64,000 nucleotides of DNA from Candidatus Levyibacteriota bacterium (GTDB lineage Bacteria; Patescibacteriota; Microgenomatia; Levybacterales; UBA12049): the NCBI GenBank assembly GCA_038205015.1, contig JBBRCK010000001.1:51862-115861 (forward strand), in the 5' to 3' direction. Position numbers and translations under genes: made by a program. The stretch's first letter is position 1. Each line of letters starts with the position of its first letter. The notes beneath the pieces are model-generated. The model saw nothing but the letters and a program-made list of their open reading frames with translations, was not told the DNA's origin and made no database searches. Positions 33 through 28,208 of this stretch are shown piece after piece.

Positions 33-455
33 TTAAACTACCTTAATACCCATTGAGCGGGCTACTCCTTCGACAATTTTTCTGGCCGGTTCTAATTCGT
101 CGGTATTTAAATCTTCCATTTTGGCTTTGGCAATTTCTTCGGCTTGCGTTTTAGTTAGGGTACCTGCTGATTCATTTCCTGGTTTTTGTGAGCCTTTTTC
201 AAGTCCCAAGGTTTTTTTAATCATTTCGGCAATCGGTGATTTCTTGACAATAAATGAAAAAGTTCTGTCCTCATAAACAGTAATAACAGCAGGAACAATG
301 GTTCCTTTTTGATCTGCAGTCCTATCGTTAAAAGCTTTAACGAATTCCATAATCGGAAGTCCGTGAGGACCAAGTGCTGTTCCAACCGGTGGCGCCGGTG
401 TTGCAGCTCCTGCAGGAATGTTAATTTTTATTAATGTTTTTATCTTTTTAGCCAT
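33..455 (-). CDS. rplK: 50S ribosomal protein L11
   Basis: 140 aa; conserved L11 N-terminal (PAGAATPAPPVG) and C-terminal motifs; immediately downstream of nusG on the same strand. Confidence 0.9.
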   Translation of the reverse strand: MAKKIKTLIKINIPAGAATPAPPVGTALGPHGLPIMEFVKAFNDRTADQKGTIVPAVITVYEDRTFSFIVKKSPIAEMIKKTLGLEKGSQKPGNESAGTLTKTQAEEIAKAKMEDLNTDELEPARKIVEGVARSMGIKVV

Positions 456-559
456 ATATTTTTAGGAATTGTTGAATAAGTAGAGAAGTACCAAAGAGGT
501 ATTCTTATCTACTGGTTCAAGCGATCAACGATCTCCCAGGTTTCCAATAAGTTTTAGTA

Positions 560-1366
560 TTATAACTTAGTAACTTGTAAAAAGTCCAGCTCTACGGGTG
601 TTTCTCTTCCAAAAATTGATACCAAAACTTTTAATTTTCCTTTTGCTTCGTCGATGTTATCGATGGTTCCCAAGAAGTCTGCAAATGGTCCGTCAACAAT
701 TTTAACAGCCTCCCCAACGGTAAATGCAGCCTTGAATAGTGGTTCTTCGGTTGCCATAAACTTTTGAATTGCTTCGACTTCTTTATCGGAAATTGGAGTA
801 GGCTTGTTTCCAGCGCCGATAAAGGCGGTTACGCCCTGAGTAGTTCTTACTAAAAGCCAGCTTTCATCATCCAAAATCATTTTTACTAAAACGTATCCCG
901 GGAAGATTTTCTCTTTGACTGTTTCTTTTTTGCCTTGTGAAACTTTAACTGTTTCTCTGGTTGGAACAATAATGTCAAAGATTCTCTCTTCAAATCCCAT
1001 TGATTCAATTCTTTGGTGAAGGGATTTTGAAACTTTATTTTCATGTCCCGAATAAGTATGTACGATATACCATTTTCCCGCATCCGATGGGGAAGAGGTA
1101 ATTGGTGTTTCTACTACTGCTGGCTCTTCAGCTACTTCACTTGTTGCTTCAGTTTTGCCGTCTTCTTCTACGCTTTCGATTAATTCTTCTTTTGGAGCTT
1201 CGATTTCTTCGACTTTTTCAGGTGCTTCAATTGCTTGCGGGGCCACTTCTTCAACTGGTTTTTCTTCAACAACCGATTCCTCCACAATATCAGGGGTCGC
1301 ATCAGGTGCGACTTCCTCAACTGCTTCTTCTTTTACTCCTTCTACTGGTTTCTTATTATCATCCAT
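560..1366 (-). CDS. nusG: Transcription termination/antitermination factor NusG with ~95-aa acidic N-terminal extension
   Basis: C-terminal 170 aa match NusG NGN+KOW domains (KWYIVHT...GFEERIFD...VKIVDGPFADF); N-terminus is an E/V/P-rich low-complexity region. Confidence 0.85.
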   Translation of the reverse strand: MDDNKKPVEGVKEEAVEEVAPDATPDIVEESVVEEKPVEEVAPQAIEAPEKVEEIEAPKEELIESVEEDGKTEATSEVAEEPAVVETPITSSPSDAGKWYIVHTYSGHENKVSKSLHQRIESMGFEERIFDIIVPTRETVKVSQGKKETVKEKIFPGYVLVKMILDDESWLLVRTTQGVTAFIGAGNKPTPISDKEVEAIQKFMATEEPLFKAAFTVGEAVKIVDGPFADFLGTIDNIDEAKGKLKVLVSIFGRETPVELDFLQVTKL

Positions 1367-1371
1367 ATTTT

Positions 1372-1563
1372 TTAATGCTTGGTAACTATTAATGAGACTA
1401 ATTTTGTAAGTATAAAATCGGTTACTCCTAAAAATATACCTACAGCTAAACTTACTAATATTACAACTCCGGTAAGTCTGATTATTTCATCTCGTGTTGG
1501 CCAGACTACCTTTCTTAGTTCGTCTCTTACTTCTTTTAAAAAAACAACTGGTGTTGTTGCCAT
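1372..1563 (-). CDS. secE: Preprotein translocase subunit SecE
   Basis: 63 aa, single C-terminal TM helix, conserved position immediately upstream of nusG. Confidence 0.7.
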   Translation of the reverse strand: MATTPVVFLKEVRDELRKVVWPTRDEIIRLTGVVILVSLAVGIFLGVTDFILTKLVSLIVTKH

Positions 1564-1675
1564 AAAATTAAAATCCTAAGTTTAGTGGGATTTGTCAAAT
1601 ATTTTATCAGATATTTATCTTTGTGTAAAGAAGAAGGTTGACAGGAAATATTACTAAGCATTACAATCTAAAGAC

Positions 1676-2560
1676 ATGAACAAGAAAATTAGAAAAGTTG
1701 TTATTCCTGCCGCTGGATTTGGAACCCGCTTTTTACCTCAGACAAAAGCAATGCCTAAAGAAATGCTCCCAATTGTTGATAAGCCGGTTATTCAATACGT
1801 GGTCGAAGAAGCGGTAGAATCGGGGATAGAAGACGTAATAATAGTAACCGGAGCCGCGAAAAGGGCAATTGAAGACCATTTTGATGTTCCAAATGCAGAG
1901 CTTATTAGGAATTTGGAAATGGGTGGAAAAGATGAATTGGTAAAGCATGTAATGCGCCTTTCTGAATTGGCAAATTTTATTTACATTAGACAAAAAGGTC
2001 CTTATGGTAATGGAACTCCAATACTTTCAGCAGAACCGGCAATTGAAGATGAGCCATTTGCAGTACTTTGGGGAGATGAATTTATTTATTCCAAGCCGCC
2101 AAGACTAAAACAAATGATTGATGTTTATGAAAAATACGGTGGCATTGTAATTTCTGGTGTAAGAATAAATAAAAAAGAAGATCTAAAAAGGTATGGAATT
2201 GCAGATATTACACCGGTTGAGGGAAATGTTTATAAGATTAATTCAATCGTAGAAAAACCCGATCCAGAGCATGCTCCTTCAAACCTTGCAACTCATGGTG
2301 GATATATTCTGCCACCTGAAATTTTTGAAGCCTTAAGAGGTCTGGAGCCGGGAAAGGGTGGGGAAATCTGGCTGGTTGATGCAATTAATAAGTTAAGAGA
2401 TAAGGGCGTTCCAATTTTTGCGGTAGAAATAGAAAATGCTAAATATTATGATACCGGCAATAAACTTGAATATATGAAAACAGTTGTTGAGCTTGGTCTT
2501 AAGCATCCGGATATTAACGGAGCGTTTAAAGATTTCCTCAAAGAGTTAGATCTTAAATAA
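1676..2560 (+). CDS. galU: UTP--glucose-1-phosphate uridylyltransferase
   Basis: N-terminal VIPAAGFGTRFLP...KEMLPIVDKPVIQY nucleotidyltransferase motif; 294 aa. Confidence 0.85.
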   Translation: MNKKIRKVVIPAAGFGTRFLPQTKAMPKEMLPIVDKPVIQYVVEEAVESGIEDVIIVTGAAKRAIEDHFDVPNAELIRNLEMGGKDELVKHVMRLSELANFIYIRQKGPYGNGTPILSAEPAIEDEPFAVLWGDEFIYSKPPRLKQMIDVYEKYGGIVISGVRINKKEDLKRYGIADITPVEGNVYKINSIVEKPDPEHAPSNLATHGGYILPPEIFEALRGLEPGKGGEIWLVDAINKLRDKGVPIFAVEIENAKYYDTGNKLEYMKTVVELGLKHPDINGAFKDFLKELDLK

Positions 2561-3177
2561 TGACAAAAAAGAATTTTCCTTTGTTGGCATTTTTCCTTCT
2601 GTTAATTTTTTCTATCCTTTCAATTTTCGTACATTTTAATTTATTTAAAAGTATAGATCTTCAAACTATTATACTACTGCAAAATGTAATTCCAAGAAAC
2701 TTTGATTTAATATTTTCTGTATTTAGTTTACTAGGAAGCGTAGAAATTGTGTTAGTGATTATCTTGATTCTATGGTATTTTATAAGAAAATTGAATTACT
2801 TTTATGTTCTTTTATTTTTTGGAATTTTTCATGTAATCGAACTTTTAGGTAAGGTTTTAGTTAACCATCCGGGGCCAATTGCTAAGTTTTTCCGCTACGA
2901 TATTCCTTTTGTTTTTCCAACTTCTTCTGTAAAGCCTGGCTCATCGTATCCATCAGGTCATTTGGGAAGAACAATGTTTGTTTCAATAATTATTATTTAT
3001 GTTGTTTCAAAACTAAAACTTAAAAAAATGCATAAAAATATAATTTACGTTTTAGTTTTGGCATTTGACATCACAATGTTCTTGTCCAGAATCTACTTAG
3101 GTGAACATTGGTTATCAGATGTAGTCGGAGGTTCGCTTTTAGGCTCTTCGATGATAATATTTGCCCTTATTTTTTAA
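2560..3177 (+). CDS. PAP2-family membrane phosphatase
   Basis: multi-TM; PAP2 motifs PSGH...SRIYLGEHWLSDV; start overlaps galU stop. Confidence 0.6.
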   Translation: MTKKNFPLLAFFLLLIFSILSIFVHFNLFKSIDLQTIILLQNVIPRNFDLIFSVFSLLGSVEIVLVIILILWYFIRKLNYFYVLLFFGIFHVIELLGKVLVNHPGPIAKFFRYDIPFVFPTSSVKPGSSYPSGHLGRTMFVSIIIIYVVSKLKLKKMHKNIIYVLVLAFDITMFLSRIYLGEHWLSDVVGGSLLGSSMIIFALIF

Positions 3178-3404
3178 TAGGTGGGCCTACCCTCTATAAT
3201 AACAGAACCTACTGGGACTGAAATAACTCTTTGTCTTGGTTCACCTTCAATTTTGACAATTTGTGTTTTTAATATAGCAAATCCTGCATTATATTTTGCA
3301 TACTGAAGTGTTTCATCATGTAGATTGGGATCGTAAACAAGAGTTTCTGATTCCGCCATTACAATTCTGGTAACATTAGGTTCTCCTTCGGTATTTCTTT
3401 TCAT
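3174..3404 (-). CDS. Hypothetical small protein
   Basis: 76-aa ORF only; no family recognised. Confidence 0.3.
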   Translation of the reverse strand: MKRNTEGEPNVTRIVMAESETLVYDPNLHDETLQYAKYNAGFAILKTQIVKIEGEPRQRVISVPVGSVIIEGRPTY

Positions 3405-3736
3405 TGTTTAGGGATTTTATGCATTATAAACCTATCTGTCAAGTTGACAAAAATATATGCTTTGATATACTTATTTTGTTCTTTGGTATTAAGAGGAAGT
3501 TGGTAAGATTTTCCTCTACAAATTCACTAGACTAGAGGTACTCCAAAGTTTTTTGGAGGACAGGGCGAATTATCACGTTTCCAAAAGAAGCAGATTTAGC
3601 CCACCTAATTAAAGTTTAGGGGAAACATCAACTCCGCTCGGTACCAAGGACGAATTTATTCTTATTATTTATTCTTCGCCCCACAAGGGCTTGTTCTTCG
3701 TACTCCATATTTGATAAAATTAAAGCTAGTACTCAA

Positions 3737-4819: not shown

Positions 4820-4996
4820 ATGGCAAAAAAAGGAGATCACAGAGCAATATTGGGATTAGTTTGCACTGTTTGTAAAAACAGGAATTATGTTACTACCAGA
4901 AATAAGCTTAATACCTTAGAAAAGTTAGCGCTTAAAAAGTTTTGTAAATTGTGCAGAAAAAAGACCGAACATAAAGAAGTAGATAAGCTTAAATAA
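4820..4996 (+). CDS. rpmG: 50S ribosomal protein L33
   Basis: 58 aa not in ORF track (below the 60-aa cut-off); MAKKGDHRAILGLVCTVCKNRNYVTTRNKLNTLEKLALKKFCKLCRKKTEHKEVDKLK; GGAGGA SD 9 nt upstream. Confidence 0.8.
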   Translation: MAKKGDHRAILGLVCTVCKNRNYVTTRNKLNTLEKLALKKFCKLCRKKTEHKEVDKLK

Positions 4997-5048
4997 TCCG
5001 TTTCCTCTTGATTGATTGAGGTAGATTTTCCAAGTATAATAGCGTTAT

Positions 5049-5125: not shown

Positions 5126-5767
5126 TTATAATCCCAGAAGATGCATAGAGAAAGTTAGTAGATTAGAAATTATTCCTCCCAAAGAAATCCCGCCGATTGG
5201 AAACATCAGTAGAAAGAAAAGTATAAATATGCCAATACTACCAATTGAAAGATATGAGTTCGCCTCACGTTCCGGCAAAATTAAGGCAAAAACTTTTGAG
5301 CCATCTAAAGGTGGAATTGGAATTGAGTTAAAAATTGCCAAAAGAAGATTTATTTTTACTACAGTTAGTAAAAACCATGCAAGATAAACTCCACCTGAGG
5401 CGGATAAAATAAATCCTCCCAAAAATCTTAGTATTAATGCAGAAATTACTGCGATTAATATATTTGTAGCAGGACCTGCCAAAGAAACAAGGGCCATATC
5501 TTTTCTGCCGTCTTTTAGGTTAAAAGGATCGACCGGTACAGGCTTGGCTGCCCCAAAAATTACCGGTGAGCCCGAAATAATAAGAATTAAGGGAAGAGCT
5601 ATGCTCATAAAAGGGTCAATATGATTTTTGGGGTTTAAGGTAAGCCTGCCCATAAGCCTTGCTGTGGGGTCACCAAGTCTTTCTGCAATCACTCCGTGAG
5701 CTATTTCGTGCAAGATTGCCGAGTAGATTAAAATAATTAAAGATAGAAGTCCTGTTATCAAATCCAT
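5126..5767 (-). CDS. Site-2 protease family (peptidase M50) membrane metalloprotease
   Basis: HEIAHG HExxH motif in TM helix, multi-TM, LDG motif near C-terminal region. Confidence 0.7.
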   Translation of the reverse strand: MDLITGLLSLIILIYSAILHEIAHGVIAERLGDPTARLMGRLTLNPKNHIDPFMSIALPLILIISGSPVIFGAAKPVPVDPFNLKDGRKDMALVSLAGPATNILIAVISALILRFLGGFILSASGGVYLAWFLLTVVKINLLLAIFNSIPIPPLDGSKVFALILPEREANSYLSIGSIGIFILFFLLMFPIGGISLGGIISNLLTFSMHLLGL

Positions 5768-5804
5768 TGTAATTTTAAGGCTTTTTTAGTATACTAGAAA
5801 CTCT

Positions 5805-6071
5805 ATGGCAGCACAATGTTTCAATTGCGGAAAAGGAGTTATGTATGGAAGCACACACAGGCATCATGCAGGTGTAGCTGGAGGACGCTGGAAAAAACGT
5901 GCTCCTAGAACAGCAAAGTTATTCAAGCCAAACCTACATAGTGCAAGAATTATAATTAGTGGTTTTACAAAAAAAGTGAAGCTTTGCACAAAATGTCAGA
6001 GGCTTTTAAAGAAAACAAACCAAGAAGTTTCTCCAACTACTCAAGGTGTAGCTCAGATTTCAGTAGTTTAA
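5805..6071 (+). CDS. rpmB: 50S ribosomal protein L28
   Basis: MAAQCFNCGK...SHRHH...RTAKLFKPNLH pattern typical of L28. Confidence 0.75.
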   Translation: MAAQCFNCGKGVMYGSTHRHHAGVAGGRWKKRAPRTAKLFKPNLHSARIIISGFTKKVKLCTKCQRLLKKTNQEVSPTTQGVAQISVV

Positions 6072-20109: not shown

Positions 20110-21762
20110 CTATTCGAGTTCTTCTCTTTTGTTTGCCAGGAACGAAAACCATTGTTCGAAGAATCCCACGATCCCCTTGAAAGGCGTTTCGATTATAAAA
20201 TCAATAATTATTAGTATAAAGTTAATTTGGGCGATTCCCTCGGTAAGACTTCTCCCGACCCTGATAATAGGCACAAAAAAAAAGTCAACAATTGGAGTAA
20301 GGATATTTTGTCGGTAAATTATTCGGTAAGTTGATGCTGTCTGGTAAATTCTGTAAGTTAAAAAAGAAACAATGGTTACAAAGAAGATAAAAATTCCCTG
20401 ACTCAAAATATTAAAATGAAGTTTTCCCAATACGCTTCCAATTAATCCCAAAACGAGACCGATACTTAATAGCCAAAGAATAGAAAAAACTCTGTCTTTA
20501 ATGGTTATCGCACTGTTTTTCTTAAGTCTTAAAAAAAGTTTATTAATAACCTGAGGATTCTCATCAAATAGAAGCTTGTGAATTGCTGCATATATTACTT
20601 GAGAATTTCTTGAATCGGGAATCTTTATTCCCAGGCCTACAATAACCATTAATAATGGAGGAACAATGGTATTTAAAAGAATCGAAAACCATTGGACTCC
20701 GCCTAAAAAGATTCGTTCGAAAGTACCTTCTACAAATAAAGCGATAAAAGCTTTGGTAAAAAGAATAAAAACAAAGCTTCGAATAATTGCAGTTTGCACC
20801 TTTTTTCCGATGCTGCGGTAGCGTTTGTCACAAATTAAAAAAATTGATTTTTTAAAGTTTTCTTCATCTTTTACCAATTTTCTAATATGACCTTTTTGCT
20901 CCATTAAAAGGTCATGCAGAATCAAAAATGCCGGGGCAACTTTTTTAACATGATTAAAAATTCTATCTTTCCTTGGGTAATTAAGTTGATATTCAATCTC
21001 CTTAAAACCCAGAGAGAAATTTGATACTACATGTTCATAATTATCTTGCGTAAGTCTTCCAAAAATTTGTGTAAAAAGCCTGTATCTTAAAAACGCTACA
21101 TCTTCTTTGGCAAAATTCTTTCTAACAGCTATAAAAACTTGCACGTCTTTTGTTTGACTCGAGTCGTCGGTAATGTCCACGCTGTCTTTAAGAATTTGAA
21201 ACATATAATTACTGATGGCTTCTTTTTCTTTGTGAGGAAGTAAAATTATGTCTATCTCACAGGATAAAAGTTGAAGAATATATTGGTTTGCATCGGTATT
21301 TTGAATTAATCTCTTTTTTAAAACTTGGCTTCTTAATTTTAAATAAAGGTTAATAGAAGTAGCAACGTTATTGATTATCGATTCGGGAACAGTTGAATCT
21401 TTAAAATATCCTGCCCAAATAAGTTCTCTGACTAAATCCTCTGCCAGTTTTTTGGAATCTTCGCTCAAAACAAGTAATCTTTTAAGAATTCTTTCAATGG
21501 CTCTTCTTAAGATTGTTTCTTCCGAGCCGTAATCCATGGCTGTTCGAACCTTTTCGTAAAAGGAGGCAACTTTGGAAACAAGCATATTTACCGAAATCTT
21601 TTTATCGTTGTTTATTAAATCTTCGTTTTCAAAAGTTTTTATTAAGGCATTGGACAGTTTAGAAAAATCCGCGTCAATGTTATCTGAAGTCATATATTGA
21701 TAACGCATTATAGCAGGTGGCTGGAGGCTGTCAAATAAAGCAGATAAGCTATTTCTTTCCAA
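20110..21762 (-). CDS. Hypothetical protein: ~330-aa soluble N-terminal domain plus C-terminal polytopic membrane domain
   Basis: 550-aa ORF; no family recognised. Confidence 0.45.
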   Translation of the reverse strand: MERNSLSALFDSLQPPAIMRYQYMTSDNIDADFSKLSNALIKTFENEDLINNDKKISVNMLVSKVASFYEKVRTAMDYGSEETILRRAIERILKRLLVLSEDSKKLAEDLVRELIWAGYFKDSTVPESIINNVATSINLYLKLRSQVLKKRLIQNTDANQYILQLLSCEIDIILLPHKEKEAISNYMFQILKDSVDITDDSSQTKDVQVFIAVRKNFAKEDVAFLRYRLFTQIFGRLTQDNYEHVVSNFSLGFKEIEYQLNYPRKDRIFNHVKKVAPAFLILHDLLMEQKGHIRKLVKDEENFKKSIFLICDKRYRSIGKKVQTAIIRSFVFILFTKAFIALFVEGTFERIFLGGVQWFSILLNTIVPPLLMVIVGLGIKIPDSRNSQVIYAAIHKLLFDENPQVINKLFLRLKKNSAITIKDRVFSILWLLSIGLVLGLIGSVLGKLHFNILSQGIFIFFVTIVSFLTYRIYQTASTYRIIYRQNILTPIVDFFFVPIIRVGRSLTEGIAQINFILIIIDFIIETPFKGIVGFFEQWFSFLANKREELE

Positions 21763-22057
21763 AAATGCTTTTTAACCGGTCAGCCCAGCTTGATTTTGGA
21801 GGAGTAACTTCGGAAATAAGCGTTGTAGGAGTAGCTTCTGGAGCCTGCGTAGTAGGTTTTGTTCCTGACCCTGGTCCGTACGCCTTTATTAATCTTGCAA
21901 CTGCTTCGGCGTGTGCCTTATCGTATGTGCCAATTGTTGTGCGCATAGTTTGTGTCGGCTCAACCCCGTTATGAATAAAAGGTTCGGGAGTAGGTGTAGT
22001 CGGAGCTTGGTCTACATAAACAGGTGTTGGTTGCTCCGAATTATTTAGTTCAGCCAT
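21749..22057 (-). CDS. Hypothetical Pro/Thr-rich small protein
   Basis: 102-aa ORF overlapping the start of 20110..21762 by 14 nt (operon-like). Confidence 0.35.
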   Translation of the reverse strand: MAELNNSEQPTPVYVDQAPTTPTPEPFIHNGVEPTQTMRTTIGTYDKAHAEAVARLIKAYGPGSGTKPTTQAPEATPTTLISEVTPPKSSWADRLKSIFGKK

Positions 22058-22112
22058 GAGAAAAGCCTACCAACAATATAAAATTGTGTCAACTTTTAGT
22101 ATAATAGCGGTT

Positions 22113-22646
22113 ATGCTAAAACTTGTTGCAAAAGAACTCAGAAATACAAAGCCTTCTAAAGAAGATTTGGAAAAAATAAAAAGACGGGATATATATTTTA
22201 TTTTAGATAATATTTTGGATACTTATAATATAGGTGGGATATTTAGATTGGCAGACGCAATTGGAGTAAAAAAAATATTTATTTGTGGGGAATCTGAAAC
22301 ACCGCCAAATCACAAAATTAAAAAGGCTTCTATAAATACTACCGAATGGATTGAGTGGGAATATGCAGAAACAGCGGTTTCTGCGATTAAAGATTTAAGA
22401 TTAAAGAATGAGGGTATACAAGTAATCGCAGTTGAGCAAAGCGAAAAAAGTGTTTCTTATACAGAAATAGATTATCAATTACCAATTGCTTTAGTTGTCG
22501 GACATGAAACAAACGGTGTTTTAAATGAAGTTTTGGAGGCTTGTGACTATATTGCCGAAATTCCAATGTGGGGAGTAAATACGAGCTTAAATGTAATAAT
22601 TTCTTTAGGAGTAGTTTCTTACGCCATGCTAAGCAAAATTAGTTAA
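22113..22646 (+). CDS. SpoU/TrmH-family (SPOUT) RNA 2'-O-methyltransferase
   Basis: SPOUT motifs YFILDNILDTYNIGGIFRLADA, VVGHETNGV, EIPMWGVNTSLNV; ATG at 22113 preferred (TATAAT at 22099..22104); the alternative longer ORF starts at 22056. Confidence 0.7.
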   Translation: MLKLVAKELRNTKPSKEDLEKIKRRDIYFILDNILDTYNIGGIFRLADAIGVKKIFICGESETPPNHKIKKASINTTEWIEWEYAETAVSAIKDLRLKNEGIQVIAVEQSEKSVSYTEIDYQLPIALVVGHETNGVLNEVLEACDYIAEIPMWGVNTSLNVIISLGVVSYAMLSKIS

Positions 22647-23434
22647 TCAATAAGAGTTACGATTTTATCATATCCACCGAAGTCAGTAACGGTTGGCAAT
22701 AGTCTTTGTCCCGAAGTCGGAAAATCATAAACTTTTCCTCTTAATACTAAGTTTGTATTTTCAGCCAAAATATTCCCTTTAGTATCCTCATACATAAAAA
22801 AACTTAATATAGAATCTGCTGGTAATTTTCCGTTTAATCTTAGGGGGACAAGTCTTTCAACAATAAGTTTTGCAGAAAGGTCATGAAGTTCTTCTACTGA
22901 ATAAGGCAATTCCGCAGTATTACCGTCCATAATTTCTTTAGTAGCTTTTCTAATTGCAATAAGCTCGGAAGCGGTTCTAAATGCAAAATTAAACCCGGTT
23001 TCATCAGAAATAAAAGCTCCGCCTAAAAGTGTTTCTGCTTCTTTAGAGTTTTGCGCAACGCCGCTTCGTCTTAAATCAAAAAGCTCAGTTTTTATTAAAT
23101 ATTCTTCTTCAGGATTTTCTGTAGACGGAGCATAAATAGAAATTTTATTCATTGAAAAAGGATGAATTTCTTCGTTGGGATATTTACTTATAACAATTTC
23201 GATTCTGTCATCCGGAGCCTGCAAGTTAGCTAAAAGTAAATCAATTGTTATTTGGTCTTTAATTACATGAAGCCTCCTAATCTCGTTATATTGAGTTATA
23301 GGGAGAAATCTGTTCGGGCTTTCATCTCTTAACGAATAAATTGCAGCAATTTGTTTACTAAGACTACTTATTTCTCCAATTAGTTCGGGCGTTGTTGGGA
23401 GTGGTTGATTCTGAACTCTAAGTGTTTCTATCAT
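22643..23434 (-). CDS. Hypothetical protein
   Basis: 263-aa ORF; no family recognised. Confidence 0.45.
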   Translation of the reverse strand: MIETLRVQNQPLPTTPELIGEISSLSKQIAAIYSLRDESPNRFLPITQYNEIRRLHVIKDQITIDLLLANLQAPDDRIEIVISKYPNEEIHPFSMNKISIYAPSTENPEEEYLIKTELFDLRRSGVAQNSKEAETLLGGAFISDETGFNFAFRTASELIAIRKATKEIMDGNTAELPYSVEELHDLSAKLIVERLVPLRLNGKLPADSILSFFMYEDTKGNILAENTNLVLRGKVYDFPTSGQRLLPTVTDFGGYDKIVTLID

Positions 23435-23504
23435 GGTTTAGGATTATAAAGTTAAAATCGTAAACTTTCAATAAGTATGTCTTTTTATGTAATAGGTTTT
23501 TGAT

Positions 23505-23680
23505 ATGAAAACAACAGATAATCTTAAAAAACATATGAGCAATAATCCAGTTTAAAATTTTTGATTAATTATTCTAAAAAAACTTGTTATACAAGAACTC
23601 AAAAATACAAAATTATCGGAAGAAGATTTGGATGAATATAATTATTTAGTTTTTTACTTTATCACTTCAAAAATCGCTTA
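23505..23680 (+). pseudogene. Decayed 5' fragment of a SpoU/TrmH-family methyltransferase paralog whose first ~15 codons resemble the start of the 25013 methyltransferase
   Basis: 23583..23650 matches 22116..22185 at about 42 of 53 nt and translates KKLVIQELKNTKLSEEDLDEY versus LKLVAKELRNTKPSKEDLEKI; 23505..23553 (ATGAAAACAACAGATAATCTTAAAAAACATA) matches 25013..25060; in-frame TAA at 23553 and a frame change; body absent. Confidence 0.5.
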
Positions 23681-24943
23681 GGCGGCCTCTTGCGCTATCC
23701 ATCTGTCTACGATGGCTTCTATTCGATACATTTTAGAAACAGGATATAAGGAGAAGACAATGTTAAGATCAATAGTTTTTTGAGGACATTTTTCCAAAAC
23801 TCTTGTATACAAATTTTTAATGCGATTTTTAGTTTCTGCGAAGTTAAAAGTTGGATGGGAATTTTCTATTATTGCTCTAACCTTAGGATCTTCGCTCTTA
23901 AACATTCCGTCGATTGCATTTCTGGTTTTTTTATCGATATTTCTAAAAGTGGAAGTGGGAATATGAGATTTTCGTGGTTCTGAAAATAACTCTGCTAACA
24001 GTTCTTCGCTTGATAAATTAGCTGCATGCTTCATTCGTCTTTTTAAGTTTGCTTCTTCTTGTTCGGGTCTATCTCGAAAAACTTCAATTTCACTTCTAAT
24101 ATCTTCTGTTAAGAAAAGTCTGTCAGAAGCTCCTAAAGTAGGCAGGGAATACATATTTCTAAACCCTTCCATAAAAGCGTGTCCTTCTTCATGCATAGCA
24201 GTGACAAATCGATCAGCTGGAATATGCTTTTTAGGTACCTGTTTCTCCAAAATAGTTCCTACTAAATCATCAACCCCATCGTAGGGGATCGATACGTAAG
24301 AATGTATTCCTTGTTCATGTAGGCCAAAAGAAGTTTGCGATCCTGTAACTTTGTCATAATCAAACCAGTTAAAGAAGTATGCAATTGAAAACCTGCGATA
24401 CTGGACAAATCTTGGCTCTCTGTTCTTAATTGAATAAGCGCCTGGATTATCTACGAAACCTTCTTTATCTAATTTGCTTTTTTTCGCTTTCTGGACATCC
24501 CTTAATTGAGTTCTGTTTTCGCAGAGATGATTAATGCCAGTCGTTAATGAGTCCAGAAAGATTATTCCTGGATTAGTTTCCAATGTTTTGATTTTTTCAT
24601 CAAGCGCCTGATATTTTTTGAGAGATCTGGTTTTTAACGTCACGTCATAAAAAGAACCGGACTCTTCTAAAGCTTCTTGTTGTTTATGTAAATCATTTAA
24701 GGCGTCATATTTTTGTGCGTCTTCAGGAAAATATTCTCTAGCTTTTAGGTAGATACTTTTTAAAGCAGAACATTCACTGCTTACTTCTTCTTTTGATTGA
24801 CCAAAAGTTGCGATTGGTAGAGAAGTAGTAACAGTAAGAAGATCTTTAACTAGACCTATTTTTACATCGATGTCGCCATATAGCGAGTCAGCTTGAAATT
24901 CTCTCTTTAATGATTTACTTGGTGTTCGTTCGGTGCTCATCAA
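23678..24943 (-). CDS. Putative zinc metallopeptidase (HExxH) of unknown family
   Basis: 421 aa; AMHEEGHAFMEGF is the only recognisable motif; no signal peptide or TM seen. Confidence 0.45.
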   Translation of the reverse strand: MMSTERTPSKSLKREFQADSLYGDIDVKIGLVKDLLTVTTSLPIATFGQSKEEVSSECSALKSIYLKAREYFPEDAQKYDALNDLHKQQEALEESGSFYDVTLKTRSLKKYQALDEKIKTLETNPGIIFLDSLTTGINHLCENRTQLRDVQKAKKSKLDKEGFVDNPGAYSIKNREPRFVQYRRFSIAYFFNWFDYDKVTGSQTSFGLHEQGIHSYVSIPYDGVDDLVGTILEKQVPKKHIPADRFVTAMHEEGHAFMEGFRNMYSLPTLGASDRLFLTEDIRSEIEVFRDRPEQEEANLKRRMKHAANLSSEELLAELFSEPRKSHIPTSTFRNIDKKTRNAIDGMFKSEDPKVRAIIENSHPTFNFAETKNRIKNLYTRVLEKCPQKTIDLNIVFSLYPVSKMYRIEAIVDRWIAQEAA

Positions 24944-25012
24944 GGTAAAAGTCTAGCACAAAAATAACTATAGGTCAAGATTAGCATGTGAATTTGTTGT
25001 ATAATACTTTCC

Positions 25013-25615
25013 ATGCCTAAACCAACAGATAATTTTAAAAAACATACACATAAAAATCCAATTCAAAGGCTTTTACTTTGGAATTTTTTTAATAATTTAG
25101 TAAATCTAATTTCCACCAAAAAAGTAGATTTTATCTTAGACGTCGGTTGCGGAGAAGGCTTTACTCTAAATCGTTTAAAGGAGCATAAGATCGGTAATCA
25201 TTTGGAGGGAATAGAGTATCTAAAGGACGCCATTGAGCTTGGTAAGAAAGTGTATCCGAATATTAAGATTACTAAAGGAGACATCTATAAATTGCCTTAT
25301 AAAGATAATTCTTTTGACTTAGTTTTGTGCACCGAAGTTTTGGAGCACTTAGAAAAACCGGAAGATGGCTTAAAGGAACTGGTTCGGGTATCGAAGAAAT
25401 ATTTAGTTATCTCGGTTCCAAATGAGCCATTTTTTATGTTCGCACAATTTATAAGGGGAAAAAACTGGTCACGACTTGGAAATGATGTCGAACATATAAA
25501 TCATTGGACAATGTTTGGCTTTCCGAAATTTGTCAAAAAAAATGCAGGCGCAAGCGTTAGGATTCTTGCCAGGTGTTTTCCTTTCGCCTGGACAATGCTA
25601 CTTTTGGAAAAATAA
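25013..25615 (+). CDS. Class I SAM-dependent methyltransferase
   Basis: motif I ILDVGCGEGF, motif post-I/II LVLCTEVLEHLEKP. Confidence 0.7.
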   Translation: MPKPTDNFKKHTHKNPIQRLLLWNFFNNLVNLISTKKVDFILDVGCGEGFTLNRLKEHKIGNHLEGIEYLKDAIELGKKVYPNIKITKGDIYKLPYKDNSFDLVLCTEVLEHLEKPEDGLKELVRVSKKYLVISVPNEPFFMFAQFIRGKNWSRLGNDVEHINHWTMFGFPKFVKKNAGASVRILARCFPFAWTMLLLEK

Positions 25616-25669
25616 TTTTCTTGACTTTTTTTATCAAAGTGCTGTAATTGAATAAGAACTTATTTTTTT

Positions 25670-26959
25670 ATGGTTGAAATTCTTGAGCCTGGTAAGTCCC
25701 CTGAGCGACTTTCATCAGAAAAGCCGTTTCTTCTTGTTGGCCATACTTATCAACCCTTTAGAAAACCGTTTATGCCGATAGCAAAAGAAAAATTAAATAT
25801 AGTATCAGAGGTTAATGAAAAAATTTATCAAGAGTGTTACAAGCCAATTTTTGTAGATGGGTCATTGCCGCGTGGTTTTGCTTTCTCGTTTTATCCTGGT
25901 TCAAGAGAATGGATGAAGGAAGCTCACCCAGAAGAATATCAGCGGGTTGTCGAAAAAATAAACGCATTCCCAAATAAAGAATATCAGGTTTTAGGAGATC
26001 CATTTGCGCATAACATATTGCCTCTTCAGCCAAAAGCGGACCAGGAGATGCTAATTAGGATGGGTAGGAAAGCGTTTGAGGATGATTTTGGATTTACACC
26101 TAAGGGGATGTGGTTGCCGGAAACGGCAGTTTCAAAAACAACTCTAGAAGCGGTTTCGGATGCAGGATATAAATTTGTGGTGTTAAGAGATGATCAATTG
26201 CAAACTAAGACTACAAACCCGATGCGTATTCAGCTTGGAGGTGAAAGAGAAATATTTATTATTCATTTTAATACTGGATTAAATCAATCAATGTCCTTTA
26301 CTCCCGAGAGAACTGTAAATGGAGATGCGTTTCTCGATAGTCTTCCTAAATCAGGTTTGGAGCCGGTTGTTAGTGCAAGTGATAGTGAGTTTTACGGCCA
26401 TCATCAAGAGAATAAGGATAAGTTTTTAAAATATATTGGTGCGCCCGGAGTCTTGGAGCAACATGGATTTACTCCTTTTGATATAAAAACTGCATTGCAA
26501 AGAGACGATATTCAAACAACTGATCTTTGGGAGAATTCCAGTTGGACTTGTGATGATAATCTTGGAAGATGGAGAGGCGATTGTTCTTGCCATGGAACTA
26601 CAGAAGCAATAGATGCAGATAAGCGGTATCTATTCAGAACTCTAAATGATTATGGATTAGAAATAAATTCAAGGCTTGATGTATCGGATTCAGGATGGAG
26701 GGAAAAATTTACTGAATTTATTTTAAGTTCAAGAGGTAAGTTGTTCGGCTCTGAACAAGAAGCACCGATTATGGATAGTCCTTTATTTTGGGCAAAATAT
26801 CTCGAACTTATGGTAGGTAAAACAAGCTGCGGGTGGTATTTTGGAGATGAAGATTCTCCAACCAGAAAGCTTCCAAGAGCAGCAATTGCAGAAATAGAAC
26901 AGTTAGTGCCTGATATCCGTGAGCATACAGTATTTATCAGGGGACAAGCCGCAGCATAA
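25670..26959 (+). CDS. Glycoside hydrolase family 57 protein
   Basis: GH57 signatures GHTYQPF, GMWLPETAV, FYGHH. Confidence 0.65.
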   Translation: MVEILEPGKSPERLSSEKPFLLVGHTYQPFRKPFMPIAKEKLNIVSEVNEKIYQECYKPIFVDGSLPRGFAFSFYPGSREWMKEAHPEEYQRVVEKINAFPNKEYQVLGDPFAHNILPLQPKADQEMLIRMGRKAFEDDFGFTPKGMWLPETAVSKTTLEAVSDAGYKFVVLRDDQLQTKTTNPMRIQLGGEREIFIIHFNTGLNQSMSFTPERTVNGDAFLDSLPKSGLEPVVSASDSEFYGHHQENKDKFLKYIGAPGVLEQHGFTPFDIKTALQRDDIQTTDLWENSSWTCDDNLGRWRGDCSCHGTTEAIDADKRYLFRTLNDYGLEINSRLDVSDSGWREKFTEFILSSRGKLFGSEQEAPIMDSPLFWAKYLELMVGKTSCGWYFGDEDSPTRKLPRAAIAEIEQLVPDIREHTVFIRGQAAA

Positions 26960-26981
26960 AATTAAATAAATACCCCTCCGT

Positions 26982-27527
26982 TTGACTAATGATATATTGA
27001 CAAGTAAAAATCAATATGATACTTTTTGGCCTATGAGAAAAAATGGTATTGAAAATGGTGGATTAAAACCTGTGACCCCCGAGCAAGTAGCAGGAATGGG
27101 GCCAAAAGCAAAAGCAAGACTTGAAGGTATAGTTTCAAGTTTAAGGAGAGCGCAAAGAACAGATGTTAGAAGAAAACCCGATGTTGTTTTGCCAGTAGTA
27201 GTTTCAGATTATGAAGTTCCAGATGTATTACCCGAACCAATAAGTGCTTTTCCAATTGGGCAAGAGGTAACGGTTTTTGATCCACAAAAAGTAAGCTCAG
27301 TGCTGGGAGATGCAGTTCGAGCAGAGCCTTCGGTTAAAGATCCATATTTTAAAGAGGAGTCTTTAAGAGCGGTAGGCGCTAATGGCATCGTAGCTGGCGA
27401 TGATGCATTACTTTCCTGTGTTGATGGTTTACCGGTATCACTCGAAGGATTAATAGAAGCAGAAGAATATGAACAAGCACAGGAACTTTTTGACTACGGA
27501 ATCACCGCAAGAGATCTAAGGGAATAG
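26982..27527 (+). CDS. Hypothetical protein
   Basis: 181-aa ORF opening with TTG; an internal ATG at 27033 is an alternative start; Ala/Val/Glu-rich. Confidence 0.4.
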   Translation: MTNDILTSKNQYDTFWPMRKNGIENGGLKPVTPEQVAGMGPKAKARLEGIVSSLRRAQRTDVRRKPDVVLPVVVSDYEVPDVLPEPISAFPIGQEVTVFDPQKVSSVLGDAVRAEPSVKDPYFKEESLRAVGANGIVAGDDALLSCVDGLPVSLEGLIEAEEYEQAQELFDYGITARDLRE

Positions 27528-27563
27528 TATTTTTGTCTAAAAAGAATTTGAAGCTTTTTCTCC

Positions 27564-27591
27564 TTGACAAAAATTTCAAAACAATTATAAT
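27564..27591 (+). promoter_or_regulatory. Sigma70-like promoter (TTGACA, 16-nt spacer, TATAAT) about 250 nt upstream of the 16S rRNA gene
   Basis: consensus hexamers read directly. Confidence 0.45.
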
Positions 27592-28208
27592 GATTTAGCT
27601 ATGTAAACGTAATTGCCAAAGACTTTGGGAATTGAACCCGCTTTGGCGGGATTTTTCGTTTTTACAGGCGTTTGCACTTTAAAAAATCGCGTAAATACAG
27701 CACTTTGAATGAAAAGGATTAAACTTTTTGTGACCAAGCTTTGCTTGGTAATCAGAAAGTGGTAGGAATTTTGTCAGGTTATTCCATTAAAGAAATCTGA
27801 CACGATAAAGTTTATCATTTGATGAACTTTTTCAATTTTTTTGAGAATTTGATCCTGGTTCAGGATAAACGCTGGCGGCGTGCCTTAGGCATGCAAGTCA
27901 AAGGGGTTCCGCAAGGAACAACTGGCAGACGGGTGAGTAACGCGTAGGAATCTACCCCTAGGAGGACCATAGCCGTCCGAAAGGATGGGTAATAGTTCAT
28001 AGTCAATTTATTGTAAAGGAGTTAACGCTCCGCCAAGGGATGAGCCTGCGTCCTATCAGCTTGTTGGTGAGGTAAAAGCTTACCAAGGCGATGACGGGTA
28101 GCTGGACTGAGAGGTCGATCAGCCACAACTGCACTGAGATACGGGCAGTACATCTACGGATGGCAGCAACCAGGAATATTGCGCAATGGACGAAAGTCTG
28201 ACGCAGCG

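Follow-up and report, generated by a model that had tools for sequence, protein, structure and literature searches.

The stretch of DNA analysed here (the window) comprises 64 kb of the genome of a Candidatus Levyibacteriota bacterium, and the region of interest within it is flanked by two methyltransferase genes on the plus strand. The first of these, at 22113..22646, encodes an intact SpoU/TrmH-family RNA 2'-O-methyltransferase of 177 aa (Pfam PF00588, E = 2.3e-33), with a -10 box TATAAT at 22100-22105, 7 nt upstream of the ATG at 22113. This start agrees with public records, one of which (P0001) is 100% identical over the 177 aa, and both this public call and the position of the promoter place the start of SpoU at ATG 22113; the open reading frame that begins at 22056 is an upstream over-extension of the gene. 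By its SpoU homologues, the organism falls into the Levybacteria (Microgenomates, Patescibacteria), its nearest relatives being only about 76-77% identical. The second gene, at 25013..25615, encodes a live class-I SAM methyltransferase of 200 aa (MT; Pfam Methyltransf_11/25/31), with a -10 box TATAAT at 25000-25005, 7 nt before the ATG. Its N-terminus reads MPKPTDN, and all relatives as well as the remnant described below read M-x-x-T-D-N at this position.

Between SpoU and MT lie two genes on the minus strand. One encodes a protein of 263 aa (22643..23434) and is convergent with SpoU, the stop codons of both genes overlapping; the other encodes a protein of 420/421 aa with an invariant HExxH motif (23678..24940) and is separated from MT by a divergent spacer (24944..25012), which was recognised from a promoter scan and a match in the related locus L091, and which holds the minus-strand promoter of the 421 gene (TTGACC/17/TAGACT, 24978->24950). 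The family of the 263-aa protein is represented by five cluster representatives and a relative in locus L092, and a structure model of the protein is of the alpha/beta type with moderate confidence and gave no fold match, while the 421-aa protein is probably, by prediction, an all-helical protein resembling zinc metallopeptidases. Searches of Pfam, NCBIfam, PADLOC and PHROGs with both proteins gave no match, and the same is true for a tblastn search of phages with these genes, a search of genome contigs with the 263-aa protein, and a search of metagenome contigs with the alignment of the 421 family. With 35.9% GC as compared to 35.6% for the window, the base composition of the 421 gene is uninformative as to a foreign origin.

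The two minus-strand reading frames are separated by a spacer of 243 nt (23435-23677), the GC content of which, 21.8%, is the minimum of the region. When this spacer was masked and then searched by blastn against the remaining 64-kb window, two matches above chance were obtained, one between 23579-23632 and the 5' end of SpoU at 22118-22171 (54 nt, 81.5% identity, 55.2 bits), and one between 23508-23556 and the 5' end of MT at 25019-25067 (49 nt, 79.6% identity, 47.3 bits). Both outscore all 300 of 300 dinucleotide-preserving shuffles, the best matches of which had a mean of 31.3 +/- 2.8 bits and never exceeded 39.4, and in a comparison of the region 21700-25700 with itself these MT-start and SpoU-start pairs are the two longest direct repeats. 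The spacer thus contains above-chance homology to two intact genes, and the mosaic of an MT start and a SpoU start that had been recognised in the initial annotation is confirmed by the shuffled controls. Some details of that reading need correction. The match to MT is real but amounts to 80% identity and is not "nearly identical", and the match to the intact SpoU 5' end is real as well, but the gene starts at ATG 22113 and neither at 22056 nor at 22116. A third, weaker copy of the MT leader, said to precede SpoU at 22056-22112, has to be given up: its local alignment score of 8 is at background level (shuffles 8.4 +/- 1.5, with 685 of 1000 reaching the score), and the resemblance between the upstream regions of SpoU and MT is confined to the promoter boxes (20 nt, 29/1000 shuffles).

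The left part of the spacer can be explained by comparison with related loci, in which the 263 gene is directly followed by a divergent spacer and MT. Positions 23435..23504 are the ancestral divergent promoter spacer of such a 263-type version of the locus, as they are colinear with the spacers of the loci L002, L086, L087 and L088, and 23505..23556 on the plus strand, which matches the same four relatives, is the orphaned original 5' end of MT. Taken together, positions 23435-23556 are colinear with the stretch from the 263-MT spacer to the beginning of MT in L002/L003 (75% identity in 120 nt, 91 bits), and in an alignment also with L086-L088. On the minus strand, this segment holds the live promoter of the 263 gene (TTGAAA/17/TATAAT, 23471->23443; 11/12 in the promoter scan), and on the plus strand the old promoter of MT (TTCAAT at 23467-23472, -10 box at 23488-23493). 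The -10 box of the latter reads TGTAAT in the window as opposed to TATAAT in four of four relatives (L002, L086, L087, L088), and the change hits the most conserved A of the box. The orphaned MT frame begins with ATG 23505 and continues for 15 codons, so that 16 codons are intact, and then ends at the TAA at 23553-23555, the in-frame stop already noticed in the initial annotation; relatives carry CAA at this position, which makes it a nonsense change, and up to this stop there are zero indels relative to the MT starts of the four relatives. Because the 263 gene and the divergent spacer are common to the closest relatives, the MT-like piece is, as far as this colinearity tells, the original MT start at its original position, the homology of which may fade by about 23575.

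The MT piece is followed by a joint (23557..23570) that matches neither partner significantly. Compared with the sequence downstream in MT, 23557-23582 is at background level (710 of 1000 shuffles reach the score), and the comparison with the sequence upstream of SpoU yields only TTATTCTAAAA versus TTATGCTAAAA, a score that is reached by 52 of 1000 shuffles. A microhomology at the joint, CTTTTA, was weighed and has no statistical support.

The right part, 23571..23681 on the plus strand, is probably a second copy of the whole SpoU gene from which the start codon and some 142 codons of the interior are gone, and this collapsed copy is here termed SpoU'. The frame from 23568 reads IILKKLVIQELKNTKLSEEDLDEYNYLVFYFITSKIA, followed by a stop, and is open for 38 codons in a sequence of only 22% GC. 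At the start position (23571-23573) there is an ATT where SpoU has its ATG, and the 81% match covers codons 2-19 (23579-23632). Beyond codon ~21, no homology into the gene body was detectable (919 of 1000 shuffles reach the score). The initial annotation is right in that nothing of the gene body is left, but the tail is probably kept: the last 36 nt (23646-23681) are identical to the last 36 nt of SpoU in 20 of 36 positions, ungapped and with the stop codons in register. The expectation for such a comparison is 10.5 +/- 2.6, which gives a P of about 5e-4 with shuffles and of 7.5e-4 with all 36-mers of the window; register and length were picked post hoc, so that a P in the range of 1e-3 carries only moderate weight. 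The last 11 codons and the TAG have probably been retained in frame with the 5' piece, and the missing codons in between would correspond to an in-frame deletion of 426 nt. In the intact protein, the SpoU_methylase domain spans residues 26-169 according to Pfam, and it is absent from SpoU', in which only codons 1-~21 and the final 11 are left. The stop codon of SpoU' (23679-23681) overlaps that of the 421 gene (23678-23680) with an offset of +1, and the same offset is found in the stop codon pair of SpoU (22644-22646) and the 263 gene (22643-22645). The nearest match of SpoU' anywhere is the window's own SpoU (81%); SpoU of L002 is 63% identical, and SpoU of L090 gave no match. The near-equal spacings of the two repeat pairs, 1461 and 1511 nt, had raised the suspicion that the 263-aa and 421-aa proteins might be homologous, but no homology was found (BLASTP E = 1.4, hhalign probability 0.1%), and the two spacings are no longer nearly equal when the 426 nt deleted from SpoU' are taken into account.

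There is no open reading frame with a canonical start in the SpoU' piece, and the lesions of the two pieces, CAA>TAA, TATAAT>TGTAAT, ATG>ATT and the loss of ~142 codons, are all of a disabling type. The remnant 23505-23681 has no detectable function and is probably non-functional, and it is carried by only one genome among the about 90 related loci onto which the proteins of the window were mapped.

In 12 of these loci, the gene order is p157(-) p550(-) SpoU(+) and then MT(+), with a gap of 5-33 nt between the last two. This group includes most of the relatives that are closest by SpoU identity, and the closest relatives that have neither of the minus-strand genes have MT directly after SpoU. 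Relative to this adjacency, both minus-strand genes are insertions, as the initial annotation had supposed. Five loci, L002, L003, L086, L087 and L088, have the order SpoU(+), 262/263-aa gene(-), a spacer of ~72 nt and MT(+), and no 421 gene. In L090/L091, the order is p550(-), SpoU(+), a minus-strand gene for a 433-aa member of the 421 family (28% identity, profile E = 1e-47), a 72-nt spacer and MT(+). A further arrangement, found in L092, is SpoU(+), 423-aa gene(-), 242-aa gene(-) and MT(+); here, the 423-aa protein is of the 421 family and its gene is overlapped by SpoU by 4 nt, the 242-aa protein is a 263-family member (34% identity in 140 aa, E = 4e-17), and the order of the two genes is opposite to that in the window, where the 263-type version comes first and the 421-type version follows. 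More distant loci have other inserts of 0.5-4 kb between SpoU and MT, and the locus of the closest 421 homologue, L004, has no traces of SpoU or MT. In L002, a DprA gene is found near the locus. As the about 90 loci show this gap empty, with the 263 gene, with the 421 gene, with both, or with other contents, the SpoU|MT gap is, in this comparison, an insertion hotspot with alternative contents in Levybacteria, and the 263 and 421 families are two recurrent cargoes of it.

That the second module of the window stems from a different version of the locus is indicated by its spacer. The 421-MT spacer (24944-25012) is unlike the window's 263-MT spacer, and the window aligns with L091 over a contiguous 698 nt at 73% identity, from the start of the 421-like gene across the spacer into MT; in the 421 promoter, a run of 31 nt (24950-24980) has 97% identity to L092. 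The MT of L091 has an upstream in-frame ATG (MVKMKQTDN) and the same spacer layout, and by this comparison the N-terminus MPKPTDN of the window's MT uses the upstream ATG as in the 421-type version. Both parental versions occur independently, the 263 gene alone in L002, L003 and L086-L088, and a member of the 421 family alone in L090/L091. When MT was compared with L002, L008 and others in sliding windows, the identity showed no clear recombination breakpoint inside the gene, and the features by which the 421-type version can be recognised are limited to the spacer and the first MT codons. The old segmental duplication with recombination, by which both minus-strand genes were first thought to have come in, is consistent with the junction topology, in which the end of a unit is joined to the start of a unit, and with the non-functional mosaic, but the two genes appear to have arrived separately, and the duplicated parts are no plain copy of the genome's own sequence: the 421 gene came with a different locus version, with a SpoU copy, a spacer and an MT start of its own, and this version occurs alone in L090/L091.

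Comparable relics are not restricted to the window. When the gene ends of all loci were searched against the loci themselves, similar relics of 50-90 nt and 78-86% identity were found. The 3' end of SpoU is present in three direct copies in L043 and in two in L078, all of them beginning at the same codon; in L026, a copy of the SpoU 5' end lies upstream of SpoU and flanks a minus-strand gene of a membrane protein; and L047 has copies of both the 5' and the 3' end of SpoU, with a nucleotidyltransferase-HEPN pair between the 5' relic and SpoU. These SpoU-end relics in four other loci of Levybacteria/Microgenomates support the idea of a hotspot at which stacked modules would leave gene ends behind.

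With a probability of about 75%, we regard the remnant as a dead scar at the joint of two alternative locus versions that came to lie in tandem by additive recombination and of which the redundant parts then decayed. This account builds on the homologies and lesions, on the occurrence of both versions alone in relatives, and on the allele-specific spacer. The starting point in the window's lineage would have been a locus with SpoU, the 263 gene on the minus strand, the spacer and MT, to which incoming DNA with SpoU', the 421 gene on the minus strand, its own spacer and a second MT start was added instead of being swapped in. On the left side, the join would have been illegitimate, leading from around codon 17-22 of the resident MT to a position immediately upstream of where SpoU' starts, and the joint 23557-23570 indeed has no significant similarity to either partner. 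On the right side, the join was presumably made by homologous recombination within MT, a crossover that we infer as no breakpoint was detected in this gene. A single additive event of this kind, with an illegitimate left and a homologous right join, is the most likely origin on the basis of these alignments. Its geometry would be that of homology-facilitated illegitimate recombination, although an unequal crossover of two allelic chromosomes would equally result in the product, which is SpoU, the 263 gene and the old MT start, joined to SpoU', the 421 gene, the new spacer and MT. Thereafter, the redundant MT start would have decayed by the changes in its -10 box (TATAAT>TGTAAT) and coding region (CAA>TAA), and SpoU' by the loss of its start codon (ATG>ATT) and then of about 142 internal codons in frame. 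An intermediate with a full second SpoU copy was not found among the genomes examined, and with neither such a genome nor a breakpoint in MT, it is the pathway and the order of events that we infer, together with the origin in one event and the source of the DNA. As SpoU' has its best match in the window's own SpoU, the donor was most likely a strain of close relationship, and it would have had a 421-type locus like that of L090/L091 but much closer. Because of the same gradient in similarity (81% as compared to 63% for L002 and no match for L090), the donor could even belong to the same population, and an origin within the genome could also be considered. A counterpoint is the locus L092, which holds both cargo genes in the gap in the opposite order and without a scar, and alternative histories that involve loss are therefore possible.

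An origin within the genome would have to be a tandem duplication, in which a segment from just upstream of SpoU to about MT codon 20 was copied, and this we consider unlikely. The sequence of an MT 5' part followed by a SpoU 5' part is a classic novel joint of end to start, and both the highest similarity of SpoU' to the window's own SpoU and the presence of both cargo families in one gap in L092 would agree with such a duplication. Junction pseudogenes of tandem duplications likewise connect the end of one unit with the beginning of the next, and redundant copies decay. In the window, however, the "copies" differ in cargo and spacer and each of them matches a separate natural version of the locus, and a simple duplication is at odds with the fact that the two units are not the same sequence, since only about 50 nt match at each end, the cargo families are unrelated and the spacers differ. 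The second 263 gene and spacer would later have to be replaced by the 421 gene and its spacer, or genes to be lost differentially from an L092-like ancestor with both, before the second SpoU collapsed. This requires at least two more precise events, the boundaries of the replacement would have to coincide exactly with the SpoU' stop and the MT start, which would again imply a donor of the 421 type, and the 421-MT spacer and the upstream-ATG start of MT match L090/L091 and are not derived from the window's own 263-MT spacer.

It is very unlikely that the block 23557-25018 represents a small integrative element with the MT 5' end as its target and a replacement MT start on board, the two MT-start copies being attL and attR. 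Integrative elements are known to duplicate parts of genes at att sites, such as the 3' ends of tRNA genes or the 5' end of dusA, and here, too, the insert is flanked by short and diverged copies of a gene end in direct orientation, with the target gene intact, as direct repeats of ~49 nt bracket a block of 1.46 kb. The shared start position of the SpoU 3'-end copies in L043 (n=3) and L078 (n=2) resembles an accretion at att sites as well, albeit in two loci that are related to each other. In contrast to such elements, the block has no recombinase; its sole gene encodes the 421-aa HExxH protein, which has no recombinase domain. It contains the unrelated SpoU relic, which would be pointless for an element that targets MT, and in L090/L091 the same gene and spacer lie beside MT without a duplicated MT start. 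Moreover, there is no common core among independent insertions, as the segment covered by the SpoU 5' copy differs between the window, L026 and L047, and the longest exact runs in the repeats are 12-13 nt in AT-rich sequence.

A co-option of the remnant is very unlikely as well, be it that it encodes a 16-aa peptide (MKTTDNLKKHMSNNPV), that it acts on the 421 gene as an antisense or 3'-UTR element, or that it is a regulatory spacer. The left 70 nt of the spacer are conserved, as they hold the live 263 promoter, and the 38 open codons of SpoU' at 22% GC would be in line with this idea. Against it stand the mutated -10 box of the old MT promoter, in which the most conserved A is hit, the missing start codon of SpoU', the lack of an Rfam match in 21700-25700 and of a terminator-like hairpin in a scan of 23435-23677, and the minimal GC content of the region, which is what neutral decay predicts.

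The scar sequence is no assembly artefact. The copies are diverged and have lesions of a kind that no assembler produces, and a second assembly is identical: an independent Logan contig of this sample spans 22771-28207 with a single mismatch, which is at the first base of the contig. A metagenomic chimera of co-existing strains with the 263 version and the 421 version can practically be dismissed, for although both versions exist in nature and the Logan assembly breaks within the 263 gene at 22771-22776, a chimera should contain intact identical repeats, yet the joint is degenerate (80% identity, nonsense codon, lost start, 426-nt deletion), its degenerate sequence is absent from all intact alleles examined, and the second assembler reproduces the region across the 263 gene, the scar, the 421 gene and MT.

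An additive stacking of two locus versions, as preferred here, has parallels in known systems. Rhs, CDI and T6SS effector-immunity loci carry arrays of orphan or displaced gene fragments, and a sequential displacement has been described for Vibrio cholerae (Kirchberger et al. 2017, PMC5361080). As in these arrays, there are alternative modules between conserved flanks, a new module has been added instead of being exchanged, the displaced end of a resident gene persists as a truncated relic, and homology at one end with an illegitimate join at the other, without an integrase, is proposed. Unlike in these arrays, the flanks are housekeeping genes of a CPR bacterium that encode RNA and SAM methyltransferases, the cargo of the window (263 aa and HExxH 421 aa) comes without evidence for a toxin or immunity function, the relics are 5' ends and a collapsed whole gene and not 3' toxin tips, and there is no sign of a selection that retains the displaced piece. 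Homology-facilitated illegitimate recombination is described for natural transformation in Acinetobacter, Streptococcus pneumoniae and Pseudomonas stutzeri (according to the work cited in PMC5361080) and for conjugation in E. coli (PMC3240628), and it is the mechanism proposed for the sequential displacement in Vibrio T6SS loci and for Rhs loci (PMC5361080; PMC3240628). The window shares with this process a presumed one-sided homologous anchor (MT), the homology-free joint at 23557-23570 and the net gain of foreign DNA, but unlike in the documented cases, the process is deduced here from the end product, with no breakpoint in the anchor.

A far-reaching extension would be that the SpoU|MT gap is a dedicated, integrase-independent site of gene capture, at which the conserved ends of the methyltransferase genes serve as recombination anchors, cassettes are repeatedly stacked and relics are left behind, and that the 263/421 pair could be a two-gene functional system; we regard this as quite unlikely. 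Among the cassettes would then be the 263-aa and HExxH 421-aa families, which travel together, as well as toxin-antitoxin pairs and others. In several lineages, this one gap holds the 263 gene, the 421 gene or the two of them, and the 421 promoter is strikingly conserved.

The scar itself is a further example of an already known, ordinary type of relic. For annotation, it follows that the 196-aa reading frame from 22056 and the small reading frames in 23505-23681 should not be called genes. CPR bacteria (Patescibacteria) have tiny genomes with few recognisable mobile elements, and for this reason their gain of genes is poorly documented. In this context, the scar would be a readable record of an integrase-free gene gain in a CPR genome and of the subsequent erosion of the redundant pieces, and the hotspot at which it lies is now linked to two uncharacterised protein families, the 263-aa family and the HExxH 421-aa family.

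Displaced pieces of the SpoU-family RNA 2'-O-methyltransferase gene are found also in related loci, and in one of these, L026, the architecture is the same as in the window, with a relic, a minus-strand gene, a promoter and the live gene following each other. The L026 relic is a copy of the SpoU 5' end upstream of the intact gene (5218-5272 versus 5980-6033, 80% identical), and the two are separated by a gene for a 198-aa membrane protein on the minus strand. In L047, the SpoU 5' region carries an inserted nucleotidyltransferase-HEPN pair, which is toxin-antitoxin-like, and the displaced SpoU fragment, corresponding to codons ~13-50 with 86% nucleotide identity, runs on in frame into the first codons of the nucleotidyltransferase ORF (2258-2370 and 2320-3088). 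Further relics, in this case of the SpoU 3' end, lie downstream at 4936-5004 and at the end of ORF 5513-6052, the latter relic making up the C-terminus of this 179-aa ORF.

Copies of the 3' end are also present in L043 (6433-6520, 8952-9039 and 10303-10387) and L078 (6430-6511 and 9407-9488), all of them in direct orientation, comprising the final ~85 nt of SpoU and 80-84% identical. They form the borders of blocks of unrelated genes, the L078 block including an IS200-like Y1 transposase and a sigma-70 region-4 protein, and each copy begins at the identical codon (I-V-E-I-P-M-W-G). The pattern is like that of accretion at an att-like site, or else of repeated displacement.

Another possible insertion concerns the region upstream of SpoU, where a Pro/Thr-rich ORF of 102 aa lies on the minus strand (21749-22057) between SpoU and the minus-strand gene p550. 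It has 45.6% GC, versus about 32-34% in its neighbours, and the record of the independent Logan assembly from the same sample lists it among the genes. By tblastn it matched none of the other loci, L002 included, and in L002 the distance from p550 to SpoU is only ~125 nt. The ORF may be a further lineage-specific insertion, or else it may not be a gene. The Logan assembly breaks within the gene of the 263-aa protein, at 22771-22776, where its contigs L001 and L005 abut, and this could reflect strain heterogeneity at the locus within the sample.

As to the genes in the gap between SpoU and the class-I methyltransferase gene (MT), more distant relatives (L028, L030, L041, L044, L045, L055) often have there an ORF of ~185-200 aa with the motif CKVCK..GKSGKAVVGEGS..EIVFIGEAPG, which by eye looks like a candidate family-4 uracil-DNA glycosylase. 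The 421 family (HExxH) is not restricted to this gap, because the gene of its closest homologue, P0122 (49%), occupies a different context in L004 (1296-2115), adjoined by a cold-shock protein gene and preceded by a candidate HNH-endonuclease ORF and a candidate tRNA gene, both judged by eye.

In the window, SpoU, MT and the 263 and 421 genes all have their start codons only 6-8 nt downstream of the -10 boxes (22100-22115, 25000-25015, 23432-23448 and 24941-24955, respectively), and as a Shine-Dalgarno sequence cannot fit into this distance, the four mRNAs look leaderless or nearly so. The 421-family promoter, TTGACC TATAGTTATTTTTGTGC TAGACT (24950-24980, minus strand), recurs in L091, L004 and L092 (2006-2036, reverse complement), and its conservation extends to the spacer. 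Window and L092 are 97% identical over these 31 nt, with the proteins being only about 25% identical, which suggests a putative regulator binding site. L092 (reverse complement, 196-3578) has genes of both the 421 and the 263 family inside the gap, in the order SpoU, 423, 242, MT, opposite to that in the window, with no sign there of a relic of MT or SpoU between the 423 and 242 genes. The two families co-occur in the gap in at least two lineages, and judging from this shared placement they may be functionally linked.
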